A program made the translations under genes and the position numbers. From an uncultured Gammaproteobacteria bacterium (GTDB lineage Bacteria; Patescibacteriota; Patescibacteriia; UBA9934; GWF2-40-263), in contig CAYHWG010000001.1 in assembly GCA_964360375.1 (NCBI GenBank), forward strand, positions 1-38,201: DNA of 38,201 bases. The letters run 5' to 3'. The notes beneath the pieces are model-generated. The model saw only the letters and a list, made by a program, of their open reading frames with translations, was not told the origin of the DNA and ran no database searches. Shown piece after piece: positions 8,040 to 36,050 of the stretch (position 1 is its first letter; the number at the start of each line of letters is the position of its first letter).

Positions 8040-9251
8040 ATGTCCCCAACCATCCTCCATGTTTCCGACTACCTCGCTCTTCTCAACGAAGTCCTTCACG
8101 ACCGCGTTCCCTCGAACGAAATCTTGATCGAAGGTGAGGTTTCGGATTACCGCGTTGCTCAGCAGAAGTGGGTGAGTTTTGATTTGAAGGATGAAAAAGC
8201 CGAGGCTGTTTTGAAATGCTTCGCGACTGTTTGGCAAATCACGACGCCGATTGAAGACGGAATGCGCGTACATGTAAAAGGGTTTCCAAAAATGTATGAG
8301 CGTTTTGGTACGTTGAAACTCAACGTTCAATCGATCGAACCCGTTGGTGAGGGAGCGTTGAAACGCGCGTATGATCTTCTTAAGAAAAAATTAGAAGCCG
8401 AAGGATTATTTGATGCTTCTCGCAAGCGAACATTGCCACGATTTCCAAAGAAGATCGGACTCATTACATCTCGAGATGCAGCTGCCTACGGAGATTTTTT
8501 ACGCATCGTGAACAATCGATGGGGTGGAATTGAGATTTTGCACGCGCATGTGCATGTGCAAGGGCGAGAGGCCGTTGGTGAAATTCTTGGGGCATTTCAT
8601 TATTTCAATGCGCTTGCCCTCGAGGATCGTCCGGATGCGATTGTTCTCACTCGAGGCGGAGGAGGACTGGAGGATTTACACGCGTTCAACGATGAACAAG
8701 TTGCACGTGCTGTGTATCAATCGCTCATTCCTGTTGTGGTCGCTGTTGGACATGAACGTGATGAATCGCTCGCGGATTATGTTGCGGACTTGCGTGCAAG
8801 TACGCCATCAAACGCGGCAGAGCGTATTGTTCCATCGCGCGCGGATGTGAAGTATGAAGTTGATATGATGCTTACACATAACGAACAACAGTTGCGGTTT
8901 GTGATGGACGAGTACCGCACGGTCGCAGATAAGATTGCAACACGTGTCGGACACATTCTCGAACGTGAGCGTGATCGATTAATTACGATTCGCACACGAC
9001 TTCACGATCGTATAGAAGGTTGGTTGCCAACGATTCGAGAGTCAATCGAATCATCCGCAAGATTGCTTCGACAAGTCGATCCGACACGCATTCTCGCCCG
9101 TGGGTATGCGATTGTGCGCGTTGGCGGAGACATCGTTCGAGATACCTCGAAGCTTGCGATTGGTAAAGAGATCGCGATACAATTGGCCGGAGGTTCGCTC
9201 GACGCAGAGGTTTTACGTATAAACGGAAAAGGAAAACAAAAGTTGGTTTAG
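8040..9251 (+). CDS. xseA: Exodeoxyribonuclease VII large subunit
   Basis: MSPTILHVSDYLALLNEVL..., OB-fold N-terminus, GLITSRDAAAYGDF, TRGGGGLEDL, VGHERDES. The track ORF (7890) was trimmed to ATG 8040 because upstream codons read through the DUF559 cassette repeat. Confidence 0.85.
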   Translation: MSPTILHVSDYLALLNEVLHDRVPSNEILIEGEVSDYRVAQQKWVSFDLKDEKAEAVLKCFATVWQITTPIEDGMRVHVKGFPKMYERFGTLKLNVQSIEPVGEGALKRAYDLLKKKLEAEGLFDASRKRTLPRFPKKIGLITSRDAAAYGDFLRIVNNRWGGIEILHAHVHVQGREAVGEILGAFHYFNALALEDRPDAIVLTRGGGGLEDLHAFNDEQVARAVYQSLIPVVVAVGHERDESLADYVADLRASTPSNAAERIVPSRADVKYEVDMMLTHNEQQLRFVMDEYRTVADKIATRVGHILERERDRLITIRTRLHDRIEGWLPTIRESIESSARLLRQVDPTRILARGYAIVRVGGDIVRDTSKLAIGKEIAIQLAGGSLDAEVLRINGKGKQKLV

Positions 9252-9664
9252 TGTGTCATTGCGAGAAGGAGTCATCGACGACGAAGCAATCTTTTGTTTT
9301 TATGAAAACGTATTTTTTTTACATCATGACAAATTGGAATAACGAGGTTTTGTATATCGGAGTAACGAATCATATTGCAAGACGAGTTTTTGAACATAAA
9401 GAGAAACTCATCGAAGGATTTACAAAGAAGTACAACGTGAATAAACTGGTTTATGTTGAGTCCTGTGAGGATATACGAGACGCTCTCACAAGAGAAAAAC
9501 AATTAAAAGGAGGTTCGCGAAAAAAGAAAATTGATTTAATTATTAGCGATAACCCTCAGTGGAATGATTTGGCGCATACGTTATAAATGAAAGATTGCTT
9601 CGTACCTCGCAATGACACAATCTCAAAAAGATTGCTTCGTCGTCGAACTCCTCGCAATGACACA
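9251..9664 (+). mobile_element. gtcattgcgag-type palindromic element whose loop contains a GIY-YIG nuclease gene
   Basis: Left arm is 9251-9295 (gtgtgtcattgcgagaaggagtcatcgacgacgaagcaatctttt). Right arms are 9590-9618 and 9626-9664 (aagattgcttcg...ctcgcaatgacaca). Confidence 0.7.
9302..9586 (+). CDS. GIY-YIG nuclease family protein (UPF0213/YhbQ-like)
   Basis: YFFYIMTNWNNEVLYIGVTNHIARRVFEHK...REKQLKG. Start trimmed to ATG 9302 (upstream codons are the repeat arm). Confidence 0.85.
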   Translation: MKTYFFYIMTNWNNEVLYIGVTNHIARRVFEHKEKLIEGFTKKYNVNKLVYVESCEDIRDALTREKQLKGGSRKKKIDLIISDNPQWNDLAHTL

Positions 9665-9666
9665 CT

Positions 9667-9873
9667 ATGAAAAAACAAAATACGATTGATTTCGCAAAGT
9701 CATTTGAAGAACTGGAGAAAATCACACAGTGGTTTGATTCGGAAGAACATTTGGATTTAGACAAAGGGTTGAAGCAATTTGAGCGCGGGCTTGAGCTTGC
9801 GTCTCTTTTGAAAGAAAAATTATCCGAAGTGGAAAATAAAGTGGTGGAGATTAAGAAAAAATTTGAAGCGTAA
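9667..9873 (+). CDS. xseB: Exodeoxyribonuclease VII small subunit
   Basis: 68 aa, FEELEKITQWFDSEEHLDLDKGLKQFERGLELASLLKEKL. Confidence 0.85.
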   Translation: MKKQNTIDFAKSFEELEKITQWFDSEEHLDLDKGLKQFERGLELASLLKEKLSEVENKVVEIKKKFEA

Positions 9874-10249: not shown

Positions 10250-10330
10250 GTGTCATTGCGAGCGCAGCGAAGCAATCTTTTCTACGGGACGCGCAAGATT
10301 GCTTCGTCGTCTGACTCCTCGCAATGACAA
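10250..10330. repeat. gtcattgcgag-type palindromic repeat (short, ORF-less copy)
   Basis: tgtcattgcgagcgcagcgaagcaatctttt...aagattgcttcgtcgtctgactcctcgcaatgaca. Confidence 0.85.
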
Positions 10331-11034
10331 ACTTTATGATGAAACACGAAAATATCTTTATTCTCTCGGTCGGTGGTTCTCTCGTTGTTCCAAAAGAAGG
10401 AATTGATCATGTGTTTCTTTCTGAGTTTCACAAACTGATTACACGAGAAATAAAAAAAGGATGGAGGTTTGTTATTGTGGTTGGTGGGGGAGCAACAGCA
10501 AGAGCGTATCAGTCAGCTGCGCGTAACGTTGGAAAACTTACAACCGATGATGCAGATTGGCTTGGAATTCACGCGACGCGATTGAATGGACATTTAATGC
10601 GCACACTTTTTCGCGATGTTGCGCACCCAATCATGATAAAAGATCCATCGCGTCCGATTGTGAAATGGAAAGGTTCCGTGCTCGTTGCGGCTGGGTGGAA
10701 ACCTGGATGGTCGACGGATTATGTTGCGACACGTCTTGCAAAACAGATGAAAGCAACTACGATTATTAATCTTTCAAATATTGATTACGTCTACAACAAA
10801 GATCCAAACAAGTTTTTGGATGCAGAAAAAATCTGTGAGATTTCATGGAAAGATTTTCGTAAAATGGTCGGCAATGTTTGGGATCCTGGTATGAATGTTC
10901 CGTTTGATCCGGTTGCGTCCCGGCTTGCCGAGCAATCCGGCATGACCGTTGCCATTGTGAACGGAACAAATTTAAAAAATTTACAAAACGTCATCGAAGG
11001 AAAACGTTTTGTTGGAACGGTTATACGAGTTTAG
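10324..11034 (+). CDS. pyrH: UMP kinase, archaeal-type
   Basis: LSVGGSLVVPKEG, FVIVVGGGATARAY, LGIHATRLNGHL. The true start is probably ATG 10336, because 10324 lies in the repeat arm. Confidence 0.8.
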   Translation: MTNFMMKHENIFILSVGGSLVVPKEGIDHVFLSEFHKLITREIKKGWRFVIVVGGGATARAYQSAARNVGKLTTDDADWLGIHATRLNGHLMRTLFRDVAHPIMIKDPSRPIVKWKGSVLVAAGWKPGWSTDYVATRLAKQMKATTIINLSNIDYVYNKDPNKFLDAEKICEISWKDFRKMVGNVWDPGMNVPFDPVASRLAEQSGMTVAIVNGTNLKNLQNVIEGKRFVGTVIRV

Positions 11035-11053
11035 AATGTAGGTCTGCGGAAGA

Positions 11054-11193
11054 GAGATCGTTGAAAAACTTCAAATTGTGTCATTGCGAGGAGGAGTCAT
11101 CGACGACGAAGCAATCTTTTCTTCGGAAATACAAGGATTGCTTCGTCGTCGAACTCCTCGTAATGACAAAAAGATGAGTTTTTCAACGGTCTC
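11054..11193. repeat. Full-length MITE-like copy of the gtcattgcgag element with outer inverted repeat gagatcgttgaaaaact / agtttttcaacggtctc
   Basis: Nested inverted repeats read directly. Same outer arms at 31214-31353 and on the right side of 34870-35038. Confidence 0.8.
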
Positions 11194-15214: not shown

Positions 15215-15307
15215 TTGTCATTCCGACCGAGGAGTCATCGACGAGCGGAGGAATCTCGCGAATACGTGAGATCCTTCGACTGCGCTGCGCTTCGCTCAGG
15301 ATGACAC
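15215..15307. repeat. Variant palindromic repeat (gtcattccgac...ctcaggatgacaca) between rplJ and rplL
   Basis: Inverted arms read directly. A solo right arm of the same variant is at about 1296-1330. Confidence 0.75.
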
Positions 15308-30436: not shown

Positions 30437-31210
30437 ATGGATAAACTTCTTTTGGAACTCACTCATCTTGGCCTCTCAGAAAAAGAGGCGCTCGTTTATC
30501 TCTCAGCGATTGAACTTGGGCCAGCGCCTGTACAAGATATTTCGCATAAAGCAAAAGTGAACCGTGCGACAACGTATGTGATGATTGAATCGCTCAGTTC
30601 ACGCGGTCTCATGTCTACGTTTGTGAAAGGAAAGAAACGGTTTTATTCAGCAGAAAGCCCAGATCGTTTATTGTCTATTTTGCAAGTTCAAAAACAAGAA
30701 TTAGAAGTCAAACAAAGCGAATTAGAAAAAACATTGCCGATGTTGCTCGCCCTTTTTAATGCAGAAGGGGCAAAGCCACAGATTCGTTATATTGAAGGAC
30801 CAGAAGGTTTGCAAACGATGCGTGAATCGTTTGAAAAAATGGAGGGGGAGTTTATTCAAATTGTCTGCGTCGATGAAGCACAAACTATGAAGGAGATGAT
30901 GCAAGATCATCCGCGTCATGCCGCTTCGTTACACGAAAAGAAAACACCTCATCGGATCATTGCGGTTATGGATAAAAAAACACATTTGGATATTCCGCAC
31001 GTCGGCGTCGGTGAAATTCGTTGTGTGCCATTATCCGAGTTTCCTTTGCACGGAGAAATAACCGTTCGTGGAAATCATGTGTATCTGTTTTCGTATCGTT
31101 CCGCTATTTTGTCGATTGTGGTCGTAAGTAAAGAAATGGCCGATGCTGTGCGTGCTCTTTTTGATCTCGCCTGGAAAGGAGCAGAGTCCTATATTTCTGT
31201 AAAGCGCTAA
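30437..31210 (+). CDS. TrmB-family transcriptional regulator
   Basis: LGLSEKEALVYLSAIELGPAPVQDISHKAKVNRATTYVMIESLSSRGL. Confidence 0.7.
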   Translation: MDKLLLELTHLGLSEKEALVYLSAIELGPAPVQDISHKAKVNRATTYVMIESLSSRGLMSTFVKGKKRFYSAESPDRLLSILQVQKQELEVKQSELEKTLPMLLALFNAEGAKPQIRYIEGPEGLQTMRESFEKMEGEFIQIVCVDEAQTMKEMMQDHPRHAASLHEKKTPHRIIAVMDKKTHLDIPHVGVGEIRCVPLSEFPLHGEITVRGNHVYLFSYRSAILSIVVVSKEMADAVRALFDLAWKGAESYISVKR

Positions 31211-31213
31211 ATA

Positions 31214-31353
31214 GAGACCTTTGAAAAACTTATATTTTGTCATTGCGAGGAGTTAGACGACGAAGCAATCCTTGCATTTTGGACAAAAAGATTGCTTCGT
31301 TGTCGATGACTCCTCCTCGCAATGACACAATTTTTTAGTTTTGCAACGGTCTC
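31214..31353. repeat. Full-length MITE-like gtcattgcgag element (left border of island 2)
   Basis: Outer arms gagacctttgaaaaact / agttttgcaacggtctc. Inner arms tgtcattgcgagg / cctcgcaatgaca. Confidence 0.8.
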
Positions 31354-31355
31354 AT

Positions 31356-31383
31356 AAAAAAAACCACCTGTTGTGATGGGTGG
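31356..31383 (-). terminator. Terminator-like hairpin with T8 on the minus strand
   Basis: Minus sense reads ccacc-catcacaaca-ggtgg then tttttttt. Confidence 0.45.
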
Positions 31384-31816
31384 AGTGAGAGCAGCGAAGA
31401 TTGGAGAGAGGGCCATTCTGTTTTGTGTTGAACGCCTATGCATTCGAGAAAACAGGAACGGTTCGGTTTTTTCACGAACATCGGGCGAGGTCAAGAAACG
31501 GTTCGGTTCGGGAATGGGACTGTTTTTACGTTGCGAGAGTCGCTAGCCACCACCTACATTGCAGTGCATATTTGGCCTGATTGCTATGGGATCTTCAAGG
31601 AGGTTCATCCTCGAATACGCATAGAGGCACACAATACGTTGGGCTTTTGCGCTCATCTCGCACTCGATAAAAACAGAAACCATGCTTTCATTCCTTATCC
31701 GTTGGTTTTCGACACTTCGCCGATTAAGCCCTCCTCCTTTCGATTGGAGAAGATAATCAATCTATCAGTTTTAGATGAAAATGTCAAGGTATTATGTTGT
31801 CGAAAGGTAACAAAAA

Positions 31817-31844
31817 AGACGTCCGATAAAGGATGTCTTTTTTT
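31817..31844. terminator. Bidirectional terminator-like hairpin
   Basis: aaaaaagacgtcc-gataaa-ggatgtcttttttt: 8-bp stem, A-run and T-run on either side. Confidence 0.5.
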
Positions 31845-32204
31845 GAGGGAGAGATTTGGTCTTTCGACCGGCGCAGGACACAAGAGAGATAGATATTATG
31901 TCACATGCCGGTCGAAAGCAATTTGGGTACGATGATTCTAGCTATGAAGTATTTTATTTTCAGACCTCACCAAAATAATCTGATGGTTTCTGAAGATCGT
32001 ACAACGGATGCTTACAGGCTAATGCCCATAAACATCCGTTGCACAGCACATTTTTTGAGAGTTTTTTTGATTTTTTTGTTAAAAAATCTGGCGAGTATTC
32101 AGCATCGGACTTGTCAGGAAAACACGATTCCCTTTCACATAAGCATGAGGGTTCGCTGTGTCATCAAACCTCCATGCTCGTATCCGTTGAAGAATAACGA
32201 GCTG

Positions 32205-32339
32205 TTATTGAAAGAAGATCAGGACGACTACACCGATGATATACGCACCGGTGATGTACGGCATGATGTTTCCGAACCAGACGTGTCCGGCAAACCGCGA
32301 GTCGATTCCCGCATCCTCACATTCCTTTTTCGTCAACAC
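32205..32339 (-). CDS. 44-aa peptide with one C-terminal TM helix (candidate small membrane protein/toxin)
   Basis: Hand translation: (V/M)LTKKECEDAGIDSRFAGHVWFGNIMPYITGAYIIGVVVLIFFQ*. GGAGG lies 4 nt before GTG 32339 (TTG 32336 alternative). Below the ORF-track length cutoff. Confidence 0.4.
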   Translation of the reverse strand: MLTKKECEDAGIDSRFAGHVWFGNIMPYITGAYIIGVVVLIFFQ

Positions 32340-32392
32340 ATGACCTCCAACAGGCGATTGAATCGCCATTTTTTTTGTTTATTTTCCGCGAT

Positions 32393-32590
32393 CCACACAT
32401 CCGGAGGGTAAAGTGATTCAGTGACCTGTCTTTCGACTGGTATGGATCGTGGACATCGTTTTGTATGGAACCAGTCAGCCTCGTCTGCTGGTAGGCAGAT
32501 TTCGCCGAGTGATTTCATTTGATGTCCACCGCTCATGTTGTTCCAAGGGAACTCCGCGAGACGGCATTACTCTCTCCTCCGTGTGTGTGG
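32393..32590 (-). ncRNA. Pseudoknotted structured RNA motif, copy 1 (198 nt)
   Basis: Shares invariant blocks and compensated helices with copy 2 (34288-34461). GAAA tetraloop in minus sense. Confidence 0.6.
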
Positions 32591-32718
32591 AGCAGAAATG
32601 AGAAGATGAAATTTGGAATACTCGATTTAAAGAACGGTTTTTTGAGCATTCCAAATCTCATGTTCCAAATTATTTTGTTTCTCTCAGATGTCACGAGCAA
32701 GCTCATGATCTCTGGGGG

Positions 32719-32766
32719 AAAAGGGGACGGAAGTCATCGCGAAGATCTGCGATTCGTTCCGTCCCC
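32719..32766 (-). terminator. Terminator-like hairpin after the 311-aa gene
   Basis: Minus sense: ggggacggaa-(24-nt palindromic loop)-ttccgtcccc then tttt. Confidence 0.5.
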
Positions 32767-32836
32767 TCAAGACCGTTCTTTAGATCGCTGGAATTTTGCG
32801 ATAACTCTGATGCGTTCAGAGATGTGCCGTGCGTGT

Positions 32837-33772
32837 CTACTTGACCAAGTGGCCGAACAGGGTCGGACTCACGAAAGCCAAGGCTTCGGCGAGCGGGGTC
32901 AACTCCAGACGGCGGTCGTAGTACACGCTGCGAGCCTGACTCGCGGGCACGGCGAACTTGCACAACAGGGCCGGGCTCATGGGTTCGCCGCGGGCGTTGA
33001 ACAGGACGTACTTGCTCGGGGGCACCACAGCCTCCGAAACGAGCACGACCTGCGCATTGTCGCCGCGACCAACCTTGCACCAGTACCCGTTCCCCGTGGC
33101 GTACACGATCGAACGTCCCATGTTGGCTTCCGCTTCTGCCTTCTCCTCCTGGTACAGCAGCTCGTTTGCCTTCGTCCGCGCCTCGAACTCTTCTGCCTTC
33201 TGGTACTCGCGCACCATGTTGCAGGCGTGTTCCGGCTTCTCGAACGCTTGCCACGCGCAGCTCCGGTGCACCGCGACCTTGGACAGGTCTTCGGTCATGA
33301 GCGTGCACGAGACATGCAAGTCAAGCTTCTGCTTCGCGAGCCACGGGATCGGGGCCAGGAACGCACCGAGCGGGCCCTTGCGCGGCTTGTTCGAGTTTGC
33401 ACACGAACCGCACGTGCAGGTGAGGACGATCTCGGCCTTGGCTTCGGCGACGACAGGCGTCTCCTCAACCTTGGTTTCGACCTTCTCGGCCTGTTCGACT
33501 TCGACGAGCGCGGGCAACAACTTTTCCGTGACATCCGACGAAGCATTGGTGGCCATGAAGGCTGCCTTGTCCTCGACCGTGACGCGGCTGAAGTAGTCGT
33601 CGAGCTTCGCGAGACCGTTCACACCGTGACCCTTGCCGATCCACGCCGTCTCCAAACCATGCTTGACGCACAGTTCGGTGACCATCGCAGTGAGCTGAGC
33701 TTTGTGGCTCTTCTTGCTGCTGGTCGTTGCGACGGTGGTGACGGGGGCGACGGACTGAGTGATGTTCGACAT
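32837..33772 (-). CDS. Orphan 311-aa protein encoded in a G+C-rich island
   Basis: Start set at ATG 33772, preceded by AGGAG 7 nt upstream. Balanced K/E/A/V composition, unlike the Arg/Leu/Gly-rich antisense ORFs. No recognisable family. Confidence 0.6.
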   Translation of the reverse strand: MSNITQSVAPVTTVATTSSKKSHKAQLTAMVTELCVKHGLETAWIGKGHGVNGLAKLDDYFSRVTVEDKAAFMATNASSDVTEKLLPALVEVEQAEKVETKVEETPVVAEAKAEIVLTCTCGSCANSNKPRKGPLGAFLAPIPWLAKQKLDLHVSCTLMTEDLSKVAVHRSCAWQAFEKPEHACNMVREYQKAEEFEARTKANELLYQEEKAEAEANMGRSIVYATGNGYWCKVGRGDNAQVVLVSEAVVPPSKYVLFNARGEPMSPALLCKFAVPASQARSVYYDRRLELTPLAEALAFVSPTLFGHLVK

Positions 33773-34072
33773 GTGGGAACTCCTGACGCAGAGACTTGCT
33801 CTGCAAAAAGACACACTTGAGAGGCCTACCTTCCACGCCAATGCGGGGTCAGCTCAGCTTCGCAGATTCCACCCCACCTACATGGCGGGACGATCTCTGG
33901 AAAGCGGACGATGATTAACCAGAAGGGTTAAACTTCGTCCAGGTTGTTGGATGAGTAGGTTCGAGGATCTGCTTCCTCGCGGCTCCAGTGTGTTGCCTTT
34001 TTTTACGGCGGCATGCCCTGGATACTTTCCGTCGTCTCTTTTGAGATCATTGAATTTTTTTGCGCTTGTCCT

Positions 34073-34204
34073 CTACCGCGCGAAGAAGCCGCCGAAGATG
34101 ACGAAGGCGCCGAGGGTGCCGAACGTCAATGGGGCCGGGATCTTTTCGCACAGAGCGAGAAAGCGATCGAAGGGATTGGCTGCCCAGTCGTGGATGTTGT
34201 GCAT
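34073..34204 (-). CDS. 43-aa peptide with one C-terminal TM helix
   Basis: MHNIHDWAANPFDRFLALCEKIPAPLTFGTLGAFVIFGGFFAR*. AAGGAG lies 6 nt before ATG 34204. Confidence 0.45.
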   Translation of the reverse strand: MHNIHDWAANPFDRFLALCEKIPAPLTFGTLGAFVIFGGFFAR

Positions 34205-34287
34205 TTGGAACTCCTTGGTCGTAAAATTGTGAGGTACGGTTGTCGAACATTCGACTTCCGTTTCTATGTGTCTTACCCTTTTTCGAC

Positions 34288-34461
34288 TCACAAATCCGGA
34301 GGTAGGCGATTCAGTGACCGTCCCGAAGGACTGGTGTGAATCATGAGTATCGTGCGTATGGAATGAGTAAGCAATCGCCCAGTCAACCCATTTGATACTC
34401 ACCGCTCTCATTCGCCGAAGCGTTTTGAAAGACGGTTTATCTCTCTCCTCCAGGTTTGTGG
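34288..34461 (-). ncRNA. Pseudoknotted structured RNA motif, copy 2 (174 nt)
   Basis: See copy 1. UUCG tetraloops in minus sense. Confidence 0.6.
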
Positions 34462-34779
34462 TTCAAAAAAACGCCGATGGTTGAACATATGGTCTGTCTG
34501 CCATTTAGGCAGGAGAGATACGTTAAACAATCGACGTTTAAAATCGGCACTGTGAATACAGTGTAGATTTTAACCCCGCCAAAGGCGGTAGTTGTCGGCT
34601 GTCCCGTATGGGCCATGACAGTAATGGTCTCTCCCCGTTAAGTTGTAAGGTGAAAGAAGTAAGAAGGAGAGAAGGAAAGAATGATTGAAGTTGGAAGATT
34701 AAGCATCTGCTTTTTCTTCTTTTCTTCTCTCCTTCATTTCTTCTTTATTCTTCTGACCTCTTCTCATCTTCGTGGATAT

Positions 34780-34808
34780 ACAATACCACTTTTTGTCAGT
34801 TTTGTCAA
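34780..34808 (-). promoter_or_regulatory. Strong consensus-like promoter reading leftwards into island 2
   Basis: Minus sense TTGACA (complement of 34803-34808), 17 nt, TATTGT (complement of 34780-34785). Confidence 0.55.
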
Positions 34809-34869
34809 GACCCACATCAATCAAATAATAGAAATAATGCTAAAATTAGATAAAACAGTATGTCAGAAA

Positions 34870-35038
34870 GTTCTGAAATAAAACGTTCAGTTGTGTCATT
34901 GCGAGCCTTGCCTGCCGGCAGGCAGGGAGTTCGACGACGAAGTAATCCTTGTATTTTCGGAGAAAAGATTGCTTCGCCTGCCTGCCGGCAGGCAGGCTTC
35001 GCTCGCAATGACACAATTTGGAGTTTTTCAACAGTCTC
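34870..35038. repeat. gtcattgcgag element with two nested cctgcctgccggcaggcagg palindromes (right border of island 2)
   Basis: Arms gtgtcattgcgag (34893-) and ctcgcaatgacaca (-35015). Outer arm gagtttttcaacagtctc at 35021-35038. Confidence 0.8.
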
Positions 35039-35066
35039 TAGTATTTGTGCTATAATCCTTGCATCT

Positions 35067-36050
35067 ATGCAACCATCCGTTTTCCAATCGATTATTGGGC
35101 ATACAAACGCCCAAACGGTTTTGTGTCGCATGGCGAACGAGAATAAATTGCCACATGCTCTCTTGTTTGTCGGGGCACATCACCTTGGAAAAACGCTGAT
35201 GGCGCGTCAGTTAATCAAATTTTTGTTTGGTTATCCATCATCACTTGAGTCCCATCTTGATTTCATCGAACTCGCCCGTCTCATCGATGAAAAAACGGGT
35301 AAAAAAAAATCTAACATCTCTGTTGAGCAAGTGCGCGATATGTGCGAACGCGTTTCGCATAGTTCGCTGCATGGTGGGTGGAAAATTGTTTTTGTCAAAG
35401 AAGCGAATCACCTTTCTATTGCAGCCGCGAACGCTTTTTTAAAAACACTCGAGGAACCAAAAGGGAAGATGTTATTTATCTTACGCACCCCATCGCTTGA
35501 ATCTGTTCCCGCGACCATCGCTTCACGTTCACAGATTATTCGATTTCATTCCGTCGATCGTCAAGCGCTTACAGAGGCGATCGTGAAAAAAGGATTTGCG
35601 CGTCCGGATGCGATTGATGCTGCGGCCTATTCCATTGGACGTCCAGGAAACGCGATGCGTTTTTTAATCAAAAGTGAGGAACGTGCACAATCAGAAATTC
35701 GTGTGACGCAAGCCGTTCAATTGTTTTGTGGTTCGGTCAAAGATCAAATGCGTACCATCGCACAACAATTACCAAAAGAAGATGTGAATAAAAAAAATGC
35801 AGCCGATCAAATTCTCAAAGGATGGGAATGCATTTTGCGCGATGTATTTCTGACAGATGTTGGTTGTCGTGAACTCATAGCGCACACACGTCACAAAGAA
35901 CGTATCGATGAACTACATGCAAACATGAAACAACGTACGATTCTGAATGTGTTACACAAGATTCGTGATGCACGAGACGCATTGCATCACAATACAAATC
36001 CACTTTTAACTCTTGAACATATTTTGTTCACGACTCATTTACACGTATGA
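35067..36050 (+). CDS. holB: DNA polymerase III delta-prime subunit
   Basis: FQSIIGHTNAQTVL...KLPHALLFVGAHHLGKTLMA...FLKTLEEP. Start trimmed to ATG 35067 (upstream codons are repeat sequence). TATAAT at 35051-35056. Confidence 0.75.
   Translation: MQPSVFQSIIGHTNAQTVLCRMANENKLPHALLFVGAHHLGKTLMARQLIKFLFGYPSSLESHLDFIELARLIDEKTGKKKSNISVEQVRDMCERVSHSSLHGGWKIVFVKEANHLSIAAANAFLKTLEEPKGKMLFILRTPSLESVPATIASRSQIIRFHSVDRQALTEAIVKKGFARPDAIDAAAYSIGRPGNAMRFLIKSEERAQSEIRVTQAVQLFCGSVKDQMRTIAQQLPKEDVNKKNAADQILKGWECILRDVFLTDVGCRELIAHTRHKERIDELHANMKQRTILNVLHKIRDARDALHHNTNPLLTLEHILFTTHLHV

Follow-up and report, generated by a model that had tools for sequence, protein, structure and literature searches.

What kind of RNA is encoded twice on the minus strand of a small island of genes in a patescibacterial genome, and what may it do there? 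The island lies in a contig of 38,201 nucleotides (nt) assigned to the Patescibacteriota (GenBank assembly GCA_964360375.1, contig CAYHWG010000001.1, positions 1 to 38,201 of the forward strand), which was analysed at its full length and is referred to here as the window. Much of bacterial diversity belongs to the Patescibacteria, or the candidate phyla radiation (CPR). Hardly any of them have been cultured, their genomes are tiny and leave little space for sequence that is not essential, and to our knowledge very few lineage-specific structured RNAs have been described from them. A first-pass annotation of the window had proposed two copies of an unclassified, pseudoknotted RNA, read as a riboswitch or ribozyme leader or as the fold of a type I toxin mRNA. 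The comparative evidence presented below indicates that the two copies are paralogues of one structured RNA of about 175-200 nt, strongly conserved in structure, which is a new family relative to Rfam 15, and that its fold is a nested four-way junction, in which the helix P1 closes the domain and P2, P3 (with P3a/b) and P4 form the arms, with no pseudoknot.

Structure and covariation of the RNA

Both copies are found on the minus strand at the places where they had been proposed, that is, copy 2, which is proximal to the holB gene and is also called the a-type, and copy 1 (Table 1, where the outer coordinates of each copy are extents with the full closing helix). Their identity ranges from 63 to 80% depending on the aligner, MAFFT giving a column identity of 80%. 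The fold of copy 1 reaches -83.3 kcal/mol (minimum free energy, MFE, z = -7.5) and that of copy 2 -69.9 kcal/mol (z = -5.3), with 0 of 200 dinucleotide shuffles equalling the real sequence in either case, and RNAalifold applied to the pair recovers 51 base pairs, nine of which are compensated between the two copies alone. Given that both folds surpass all of the shuffles and that the pairs are compensated, the repeat and the common fold are real rather than products of chance.

The elements which had been listed as common to the two copies are all present, including P1, the variable hairpin, which corresponds to the tip of P2, the helix named a, and the tetraloop hairpin (GAAA versus UUCG), which is the tip of P4. 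Helix a is P3, written GGACAUC/GAUGUCC in one copy and GAGUAUC/GAUACUC in the other, and is compensated between them. The additional insertion in copy 1, put earlier at ~25 nt, measures ~20 nt and folds as a hairpin within P3b. The blocks GGAGGAGAGAG, GAGCGGUG, AUCAAAUG, UUCCAUAC, ACGAU and GGUCACUGAAUC, described as invariant, do occur in both copies; the invariance that had been claimed for GAGCGGTG fails at the level of the family, given that this block is the 3' strand of P2 and covaries in the relatives.

The strand of the RNA can be established from the scores of a covariance model (CM), which in the window are 177 and 139 bits in the sense orientation (copies 2 and 1, respectively) against 30 and 22 bits in antisense, and across the family 99-187 bits against 16-46 bits for the reverse strand. 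One G-U pair is also invariant in 24 of the 24 sequences. Given this pair, and the sense scores that lie far above those of the antisense, the minus strand is the RNA strand. The CM search of the window gives exactly two copies, with no third, degenerate copy. A coding explanation was rejected, as the open reading frames (ORFs) that overlap the motif have no in-frame conservation among the relatives, and the substitutions compensate helices.

The consensus structure was derived from two alignments. The first (A4) was made with MAFFT only, from 21 sequences, without being fitted to any structure, and was folded with RNAalifold, five P2 pairs being added, while the second (A7) is based on the CM, contains 24 sequences, and is fitted to the model. 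In A4, 95.5% of 1138 cells are paired and double-sided changes are found in 35 of the 56 pairs. The covariation score of this alignment (0.413) is not reached by any of 500 column shuffles (0.204 +/- 0.009), and sliding the partners by 1-3 columns lowers pairing to 34-49%. The numbers of the fitted alignment agree with those of the unfitted one, with 95.2% of the cells paired and double-sided changes in 38 of 56 pairs, although all 24 sequences belong to one clade and one locus, and their substitution events are not independent. By helix, the covarying pairs in A7 amount to 18 of 21 in P1 (91.3% of the cells paired), three of five in the base of P2 (98.8%), six of seven in P3 (100%), six of 12 in P3a/b (94.9%), and five of 11 in P4 (97.2% and 100% in its lower and upper parts). 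A structured RNA with compensatory changes, as claimed for the two copies, is thereby borne out across the family.

The pseudoknot that had been proposed, of the a-b-a'-b' type, depended on a helix b (GACUGG/CCAGUC) interleaved with helix a, and it is rejected. In copy 2 the GACUGG block belongs to the 5' arm of P3b, in copy 1 to the 3' arm, which are non-homologous positions, and CCAGUC overlaps the hairpin at the tip of P4, which had been listed as a separate element. Two versions of this helix have 55.6% and 43.7% of their cells paired in the 21 sequences, and 278 and 423 of 500 column shuffles, respectively, do as well; in L051a, for example, GACUAG stands opposite CCUGCC (the L numbers designate the loci of relatives).

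There are 28 invariant columns in the alignment and 53 that are conserved at 90% or more, most of them in the junction (GGRGG-A-GA / GAGYAA), the internal loops of P3 (AUC-AA-AUG ... CAU-ACGCAM-GAU) and P4 (GAUYCAYAC ... GUCACUGRRUC), and the adjoining base pairs of P3 and P4. Neither the sequence nor the length of the arm tips is constant, inert UUCG or GNRA loops cap them, and an extra P3b hairpin is present in copy 1 and in L082; given this variability, the tips are not sites of tertiary contact. Covarying helices arranged around conserved junction and loop nucleotides are what a generic riboswitch has as its aptamer core. In turn, P1 has the form of a candidate stem for processing by RNase III, being a near-continuous duplex of ~20 bp which is 91% paired.

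The architecture also recalls the natural hairpin ribozyme: the neighbouring arms P3 and P4 of the four-way junction have conserved internal loops, of the kind that dock in that ribozyme, and a purine-rich junction strand is conserved. A self-cleaving or self-processing ribozyme between cistrons would sit well at cistron boundaries just past the terminator-like hairpins described below. This reading is one of analogy and appears highly improbable, considering that no Rfam ribozyme model matches the motif, even weakly, and that neither a conserved pseudoknot nor the signature of a known catalytic core was found.

Novelty and distribution

A scan of the whole window with cmscan against Rfam 15 (4227 covariance models) gave 0 matches at the gathering score, and at E <= 10 over 31500-35500 no match covered either copy, the only ones being miRNA-like matches on unrelated long hairpins. 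No match over the motif was obtained at E <= 5 in nine other loci which bear it, no tRNA was found by a tRNA search of the window, and no description of the motif was found in the literature on structured RNA from CPR or Uhrbacteria. The failure of the first reading to recognise a known family is thus confirmed by cmscan; the homologues, in addition, support the helices, and they comprise 24 distinct sequences rather than a recent local duplicate only.

These sequences come from about 15 samples, metagenomes or metagenome-assembled genome (MAG) assemblies, among them GCA_016208545.1 (Candidatus Uhrbacteria) and GCA_004297215.1. The relatives were reached through contigs which encode the neighbouring TrmB-like gene, and then by scanning JGI/ENA metagenome contigs with a degenerate pattern derived from 11 copies of the family, which yielded 25 loci, 18 of them true according to nhmmer. 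Exact patterns failed when they were based on blocks whose invariance is limited to the two window copies: CCAGTC..GGTCACTGAATC and GAGCGGTGNNNATCAAATG on viral contigs, and ACCAGTC..GGTCACTGAATC on GTDB genomes, gave only chance matches which did not extend. Phage and plasmid records contained no matches to the motif, and the viral contigs of IMG/VR no real ones.

The window itself is represented in groundwater, where a 2.35-kb Hainich contig is 99.8% identical to 31859-34209, and its TrmB-like protein is 100% identical to that of an NCBI MAG named "Patescibacteria group bacterium", the nearest named relatives being Candidatus Uhrbacteria. Taken together, the loci indicate that the RNA is confined to one syntenic locus of a small clade of Patescibacteria (Uhrbacteria-like, ultra-small groundwater bacteria), a range that is a lower bound, as the GTDB genomes were scanned with an over-specific pattern only. 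The locus of one relative (L088, TrmB identity 56%) has neither island nor RNA. Two copies are present in each of L048, L050 and L051, and one in each of L056, L058, L060 and L087, where the CM finds no second, the RNA having been duplicated in a subclade. In the relatives, the RNA is 62-88% identical to copy 2 at the nucleotide level, like the TrmB gene, while the proteins of the island share only 26-47% of their amino acids (aa).

An RNA that belongs to a mobile element or phage (omega RNA, bridge RNA, retron msr or a phage leader) was considered and rejected, as the motif occupies the TrmB-holB locus wherever the flanks are long enough, and no viral, phage or plasmid copies were found. No transposase or reverse transcriptase domains were found among the island proteins.

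Genomic context and the putative operon

The neighbouring genes of the window encode MreB, a DUF4012 protein, glycosyltransferases, a TrmB-like regulator, the delta' subunit of DNA polymerase III (holB) and a BNR protein. At every locus with enough flank, the RNA lies in an island flanked by the TrmB-like gene and holB. The RNA is encoded opposite to these two genes, and its first copy lies about 400 nt from the start of holB. The order of the island is a promoter, a leader of ~300 nt, the hairpin T1, an RNA copy, a small hairpin with a Shine-Dalgarno (SD) sequence and an ORF, a big ORF, the hairpin T2, the second RNA copy, and again a small hairpin, an SD and an ORF (Table 1).

The promoter consensus, TTGACA-17-TG.TATAGT, is nearly invariant upstream of the first copy across the loci; the promoter block GGGTCTTGACAAAACTGACAAAAAGTGATATAGT is near-identical in L048, L051, L078 and L082, and L087 has a promoter equivalent to it. 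No sigma-70-like promoter was found between T1 and the motif. T1 is kept in all of the holB-proximal copies, with 14 consensus pairs, seven of them compensated, followed by U5-7 (11 sequences), and hairpins equivalent to T2 precede the second copy in L051 and L048. Both were called terminator-like from their sequence alone, and T1 looks like an intrinsic terminator or attenuator. The small hairpin between T2 and copy 1 covaries with CGUGAGC/GCUCGCG in L051 and CGUGAG/CUCGCG in L048, by inspection of three sequences.

The leader between the promoter and T1 (150-300 nt across the loci) contains a conserved box, ACGGGGAGAGAGCC...GGUCCC, and its invariant block ACGGGGAGAGA(G)CC resembles the GGRGGAGAGAG at the P1/J1-2 boundary of the motif. 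At 34470-34808 of the minus strand, and also in L048, L051, L073, L078, L082 and L087, the box reads ACGGGGAGAGAGCC-GAGCUAUUCGG-UCCC, and alternative hairpins (GCUAUU/AAUAGC and CCGA/UCGG), both of which seem to covary in L078, may form. The leader may represent a separate small RNA (sRNA) or attenuator, and the sensing in this operon could in fact reside there. The same region (34640-34760, both strands) holds a long inverted repeat of purine- and pyrimidine-rich arms (34663-34681 and 34717-34735, 95% complementary), which produces spurious matches to miRNA families in permissive Rfam scans and is much shorter or absent in the relatives.

Table 1. Features of the island in the window, listed from the holB side to the TrmB side.
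Feature	Position	Strand	Basis and remarks
Consensus sigma-70 promoter, TTGACA-17-TgnTATTGT	34780-34808	minus	promoter scan, 10/12 matches with TG; ~300 nt upstream of copy 2
Leader box ACGGGGAGAGA(G)CC	34626-34638	minus	invariant block in the upstream regions of 7 loci; upstream of T1
T1, long imperfect hairpin + U7	34465-34539	minus	directly 5' of copy 2; U-tract abuts or overlaps the first P1 bases
RNA copy 2	34277-34467	minus	CM R1, 177.3 bits, E 3.6e-49
Copy 2 P1, 5' strand	34467-34444	minus	CM alignment
Copy 2 J1/2, GAGAUAAA	34443-34436	minus	CM alignment
Copy 2 P2, UUCG cap	34435-34402	minus	CM alignment
Copy 2 P3	34400-34345	minus	CM alignment; includes P3a/b 34391-34358 and ACGCAC bulge
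Copy 2 P4, UUCG cap	34342-34308	minus	CM alignment
Copy 2 P1, 3' strand	34305-34282	minus	CM alignment
Hairpin GUCGA-AUGU-UCGAC	34255-34242	minus	downstream of copy 2
SD AAGGAG	34216-34211	minus	unpaired in centroid fold
43-aa ORF, MHNIHDW...GAFVIFGGFFAR	34204-34073	minus	after copy 2; ATG start; C-terminal transmembrane segment
311-aa ORF	32837-33772	minus	between the copies; GC 60%; SD AGGAG-N7-ATG
T2, GC-rich hairpin GGGGACGGAA...UUCCGUCCCC + U4	32718-32767	minus	inverted repeat I9; after 311-aa ORF, before copy 1
Small hairpin CAUGAG-CUUG-CUCGUG	32692-32707	minus	between T2 and copy 1
RNA copy 1	32382-32596	minus	CM R1, 138.6 bits, E 5.5e-38
Copy 1 P1, 5' strand	32596-32573	minus	CM alignment
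Copy 1 J1/2	32572-32565	minus	CM alignment
Copy 1 P2	32564-32529	minus	CM alignment
Copy 1 P3	32527-32451	minus	CM alignment; P3a/b 32518-32465 with the extra ~20-nt hairpin
Copy 1 P4, GAAA cap	32448-32415	minus	CM alignment
Copy 1 P1, 3' strand	32411-32387	minus	CM alignment
Hairpin GGCGA-UUCAA-UCGCC	32367-32353	minus	downstream of copy 1
SD GGAGG	32348-32344	minus	upstream of the peptide ORF of copy 1
43-44-aa ORF, (M)LTKKECEDAGIDS...IIGVVVLIFFQ	GTG 32339 or TTG 32336, ends 32205	minus	C-terminal hydrophobic segment

Downstream reading frames

The RNA is invariably encoded on the same strand as the ORFs of the island and is followed, after 22-160 nt (in most cases 42-72 nt), by a small covarying hairpin, an SD and an ORF. 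The first reading of the window had seen such a hairpin, an SD and a tiny ORF with a transmembrane (TM) segment after each copy, and these are indeed present, the ORFs having 43-44 aa. After the first copy, close relatives have analogous peptides of 42-55 aa with a C-terminal TM segment, 54-72 nt past the motif, while the peptides after the second copy in L048, L051 and L075 are homologous, with an E(C/L)(E/D)(D/E)AG(I/V) motif and a TM segment, this second-copy set ranging from 43 to 67 aa and being preceded in some cases by a protein of 117-122 aa. Small hydrophobic ORFs of this kind (35-65 aa, C-terminal TM) follow both window copies and those of close relatives and are absent from L056, L058, L069 and L076, where the downstream ORF is a soluble protein of 179-199 aa, and from L087, where it is an acidic protein of 65 aa, 22 nt past the motif. 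No matches were found for the downstream and island proteins in Pfam or PHROG.

The case for a riboswitch, in which the core would bind a small molecule or ion and control the downstream ORFs, can be weighed against these data. Conserved junction and internal loops, covarying helices and variable tips are the classic pattern of an aptamer, the position is like that of a 5' untranslated region (UTR), two copies per operon recall tandem or paralogous riboswitches, and the first gene encodes a tiny membrane peptide in the window and the closest relatives. Nonetheless, the P1 of ~21 bp is too stable for gating by a ligand, and in the folds of the motif with its linker the motif closes on itself and leaves the SD unpaired, in the MFE or centroid structure. 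No terminator was found following the motif, and neither a terminator nor an anti-SD overlaps the 3' strand of P1; the sole candidate for an alternative pairing, between GACGC in the linker and GCGUC in P1, has no covariation by inspection. The first downstream ORFs fall into at least four unrelated groups, which differ between lineages and form no coherent pathway, and none is a recognisable transporter or enzyme. As there is also no similarity to any Rfam riboswitch, the label of a riboswitch proposed earlier is weakened, and a regulator of this type, which would have to act through an unconventional platform such as Rho, an RNase or the occlusion of ribosome standby, is considered quite unlikely.

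The second of the earlier labels, the mRNA fold of a type I toxin, loses ground on similar evidence. In such a system, the 5' UTR would block the synthesis of the toxin peptide until it is processed, and a nearby sRNA, for example the transcript from the promoter to T1, would be the antitoxin. The strong promoter, the long structured 5' region and the C-terminal-TM ORFs after most copies in the window and close relatives agree with this, and the polypurine and polypyrimidine tracts of the leader could pair with GGAGGAGAGAG, by inspection only, the complementarity between motif and leader being limited to these low-complexity tracts. The SD and start codon, on the other hand, are not sequestered, there is no antisense promoter over the motif, and no complementary sRNA has been demonstrated, while the members of the family in L056, L058, L069, L076 and L087 precede non-membrane proteins of 65-199 aa. 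Further co-oriented genes follow the peptides in an operon-like manner, unlike compact toxin-antitoxin modules. A type I toxin leader is therefore regarded as very unlikely.

The 311-aa ORF between the two copies has no match in Pfam or PHROG, its AlphaFold model (pLDDT 71.6, pTM 0.37) has no Foldseek match in the PDB better than E = 0.9, and its relatives amount to eight matches among 1.84 billion representative proteins in an exhaustive phmmer search (one match in a word-index search); it belongs to a rare, fast-evolving and island-specific family. In the 60%-GC stretch between the copies there are long ORFs on both strands (32519-33820 on the plus and 32837-33772 on the minus). Coding on the minus strand is supported by the conserved SD (AGGAGTTCCC-ATG), which also heads the big ORF in the relatives, and by protein similarity across species. 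Public gene calls lie on the opposite strand in three related contigs (L048 3174-4601, L050 4764-6053 and L051 13476-14735), and these annotations are probably wrong.

Otherwise unrelated proteins of the island have an N-terminal motif in common, G(I/V/L).(P/A).W(L/I).G.(D/N)G...G(V/I)(D/N)G(L/M).K(L/V), which is found in the window ORF at 32837-33772 (minus), the 117-aa and 408-aa proteins of L051, the 310-aa protein of L060, and the 130-aa protein of L065. Large island proteins of the relatives also have Cys motifs of the RRF(T/A)C.P.C type and tails rich in Arg and Gly. The common motif looks like an unrecognised domain family, possibly one that binds nucleic acids.

A proposed cis-acting leader or processing domain

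The preferred answer to the question of function, held tentatively with a probability of roughly 0.4, is that the RNA serves a lineage-specific operon in cis, as a generic leader or processing domain rather than as a classical riboswitch. A generic function is suggested because the downstream genes differ between lineages and because there is no expression platform. The position agrees with that of a leader, given the lack of a canonical promoter directly upstream and the conserved promoter ~300 nt upstream, followed by a covarying hairpin and a U-tract, and the long P1 fits a stable stem for processing or binding better than a switch helix gated by a ligand. According to this model, the strong sigma-70 promoter would transcribe the leader, T1, the RNA copies and the ORFs as one operon, and the RNA would be an autonomously folding module that acts in cis on the transcript as a whole. 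A trans-acting factor (a protein or the RNA polymerase) may bind the module, the long P1 may be cut, or both may occur. By these means the RNA would control, for the mRNA segment that follows each internal terminator, its stability, the processing of its 5' end or its read-through. It would not sense a metabolite and thereby switch an expression platform next to it.

Several points weigh against this proposal. Co-transcription with the island ORFs through T1 and T2 is deduced only from the lack of a recognisable promoter beside the motif, and the mode of action is likewise inferred. An elaborate four-way-junction core conserved in sequence is more than a simple stabiliser or an RNase III site would require; such a core is typical of ligand-binding aptamers, ribozymes and ribonucleoprotein (RNP) scaffolds and would suit any of these equally. 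No partner protein was found, the island proteins having no domain recognisable in Pfam or PHROG. Some copies are 200-700 nt from the next ORF (L058, L060, L076), a distance that fits a stand-alone RNA equally. Given the single clade and locus, finally, the independent substitution events are fewer than the cell counts suggest.

A different possibility is that the RNA is a stable non-coding RNA, either independent or excised, that acts in trans, probably as an RNP. Here, P1 would hold the 5' and 3' ends together, in the manner of rRNA precursor stems, Y RNA or 6S RNA, RNase III could release a core of ~150 nt, and this core might bind proteins of the island, either the small membrane peptides or the big proteins with Arg/Gly tails. 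The long, covarying P1 closes the entire domain, the RNA is far better conserved than any adjacent protein of the island, its inheritance is vertical and at a single locus, as in a lineage-specific housekeeping RNA, and the distance to the next ORF is variable, reaching 300-700 nt in L058 and L060; the big proteins with Cys-rich motifs and R/G-rich tails in the relatives might be its partners. Against this, the motif has neither its own promoter directly upstream nor a terminator after it, an SD and ORF follow within 42-72 nt in most loci, and no conserved partner protein is present in all of the islands. An RNA that acts in trans is thus somewhat unlikely.

A broader proposal is that the RNA is the functional centre of a system specific to Patescibacteria, whether as a new class of riboswitch or ribozyme or as a membrane-associated RNP scaffold, together with tail-anchored peptides and Cys/Arg-rich proteins. 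It is judged unlikely. With the RNA at its centre, the array of promoter, leader, T1 and motif would be a multi-part regulatory RNA device of an undescribed kind, and with an RNP scaffold there would be an arrangement similar to that of OLE RNA in bacteria with genomes of ~1 Mb.

Whichever function applies, the clade keeps more than 0.5 kb of covariation-supported RNA at one locus, comprising the leader, the terminator-like hairpin and the four-way-junction domain in one or two copies. This RNA is better conserved than the surrounding island proteins, which makes it a candidate regulatory or RNP RNA of a new type, and its alignment and CM could be deposited as a new family. The analysis also flags an unannotated, fast-evolving island beside holB, in which public gene calls are probably often on the wrong strand.

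Other features of the island and window

The idea of the island as a mobile element bounded by repeats was rejected, as the flanking palindromes are dispersed copies of a repeat similar to a miniature inverted-repeat transposable element (MITE), which also occurs elsewhere in the window. This palindromic repeat, of ~110-180 nt with terminal inverted repeats, lies on either side of the island (31205-31360 and 34860-35045) and also at about 9250-9670, 10265-10335, 11050-11193 and 15216-15256; given this dispersal, it does not mark the boundaries of the island. The copy at 34860-35045 contains the GC-rich palindrome GCCTGCCGGCAGGCAGG and overlaps the N-terminus of holB as called (ORF 34860-36050), the true start of which is probably farther downstream.

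On the minus strand, the ~850 nt that lie 3' of the second peptide ORF (31340-32200) contain no convincing ORF, and include a promoter-like site (31787-31759, TTGACA-17-TAGATT), an inverted repeat (31861-31918) and a terminator-like hairpin (31379-31364), and this region may hold further non-coding transcripts. An ORF of 46 aa, MVSVFIECEMSAKAQRIVCLYAYSRMNLLEDPIAIRPNMHCNVGGG, is found at the TrmB-proximal end of the island (31543-31683, minus strand), and its C-terminus, ...LL(E/D)DPI(A/T)(I/L)RP.MHC..G.., is 41-78% identical in 13 related loci by tblastn, a degenerate form being visible by eye in L056, L058 and L060. No other protein-like element of the island is conserved as well. The ORF resembles the precursor of a ribosomally synthesised and post-translationally modified peptide (RiPP), has no homologue in the protein index, and has probably never been annotated.

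Far from the island, an ORF of 486 aa (16722-18182, plus strand) has a weak Transposase_20 (IS110/IS116/IS902) match, at 23.5 bits against a cut-off of 21.3, and lies in a stretch with a GC content of 52-55%, compared with about 43%. It may be an element of the IS110 family, which would be expected to carry a bridge RNA.

Comparison with known systems

The RNA resembles the orphan leader motifs of the Weinberg/Breaker type, such as raiA, in that these, too, are structured RNAs of ~100-200 nt that lie as if in a 5' UTR and combine covarying helices with conserved junctions and loops. The nearest specific architecture is that of the yybP-ykoY Mn2+ riboswitch (RF00080), which has a four-way junction and a conserved G/A-rich 5' strand, and is often located before genes of small membrane proteins. 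There is no cmscan match at E <= 10 over the window copies to RF00080 or to other families, and we know of no family with the conserved blocks AUCAAAUG, CAUACGCA and GUCACUGRRUC. In contrast with yybP-ykoY and the orphan motifs, P1 has ~21 bp here, no platform with a terminator or a sequestered SD is present, and the associated genes are uncharacterised and unconserved.

The mRNAs of type I toxins (tisB, zorO, hok and aapA1) also have a long, stable 5' fold, a very small hydrophobic ORF and a strong promoter. In the present case, however, the SD is not occluded, the RNA also precedes non-membrane ORFs in other lineages, and the motif is a discrete four-way-junction domain rather than a long-range lock between the 5' and 3' ends.

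A parallel to a cis-acting leader may be found in putL and putR of phage HK022, the EAR of Bacillus, and the RNase III stems of the early mRNA of phage T7 and of rRNA, where paralogous copies head successive segments of a transcript regardless of the gene that follows, and the closing duplex of ~20 bp in the motif is of the size of an RNase III substrate. The put RNAs (~70 nt, two stem-loops), EAR (~120 nt) and the R-sites of T7 (single hairpins) are smaller, and their structures are unrelated to the motif. In the island, each copy lies downstream of the nearest terminator-like hairpin, and the likeness is one of layout and duplex size.

Finally, the OLE RNA of the Firmicutes, with its protein OapA, differs in its length (~600 nt), and the Rfam model of OLE gives no match to the motif; OapA is a conserved multi-pass protein, whereas the peptides of the island are single-pass, poorly conserved, and absent from some lineages. 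OLE is nevertheless also a conserved RNA restricted to a lineage and located beside genes of small membrane proteins, a likeness which suggests a possible membrane RNP.

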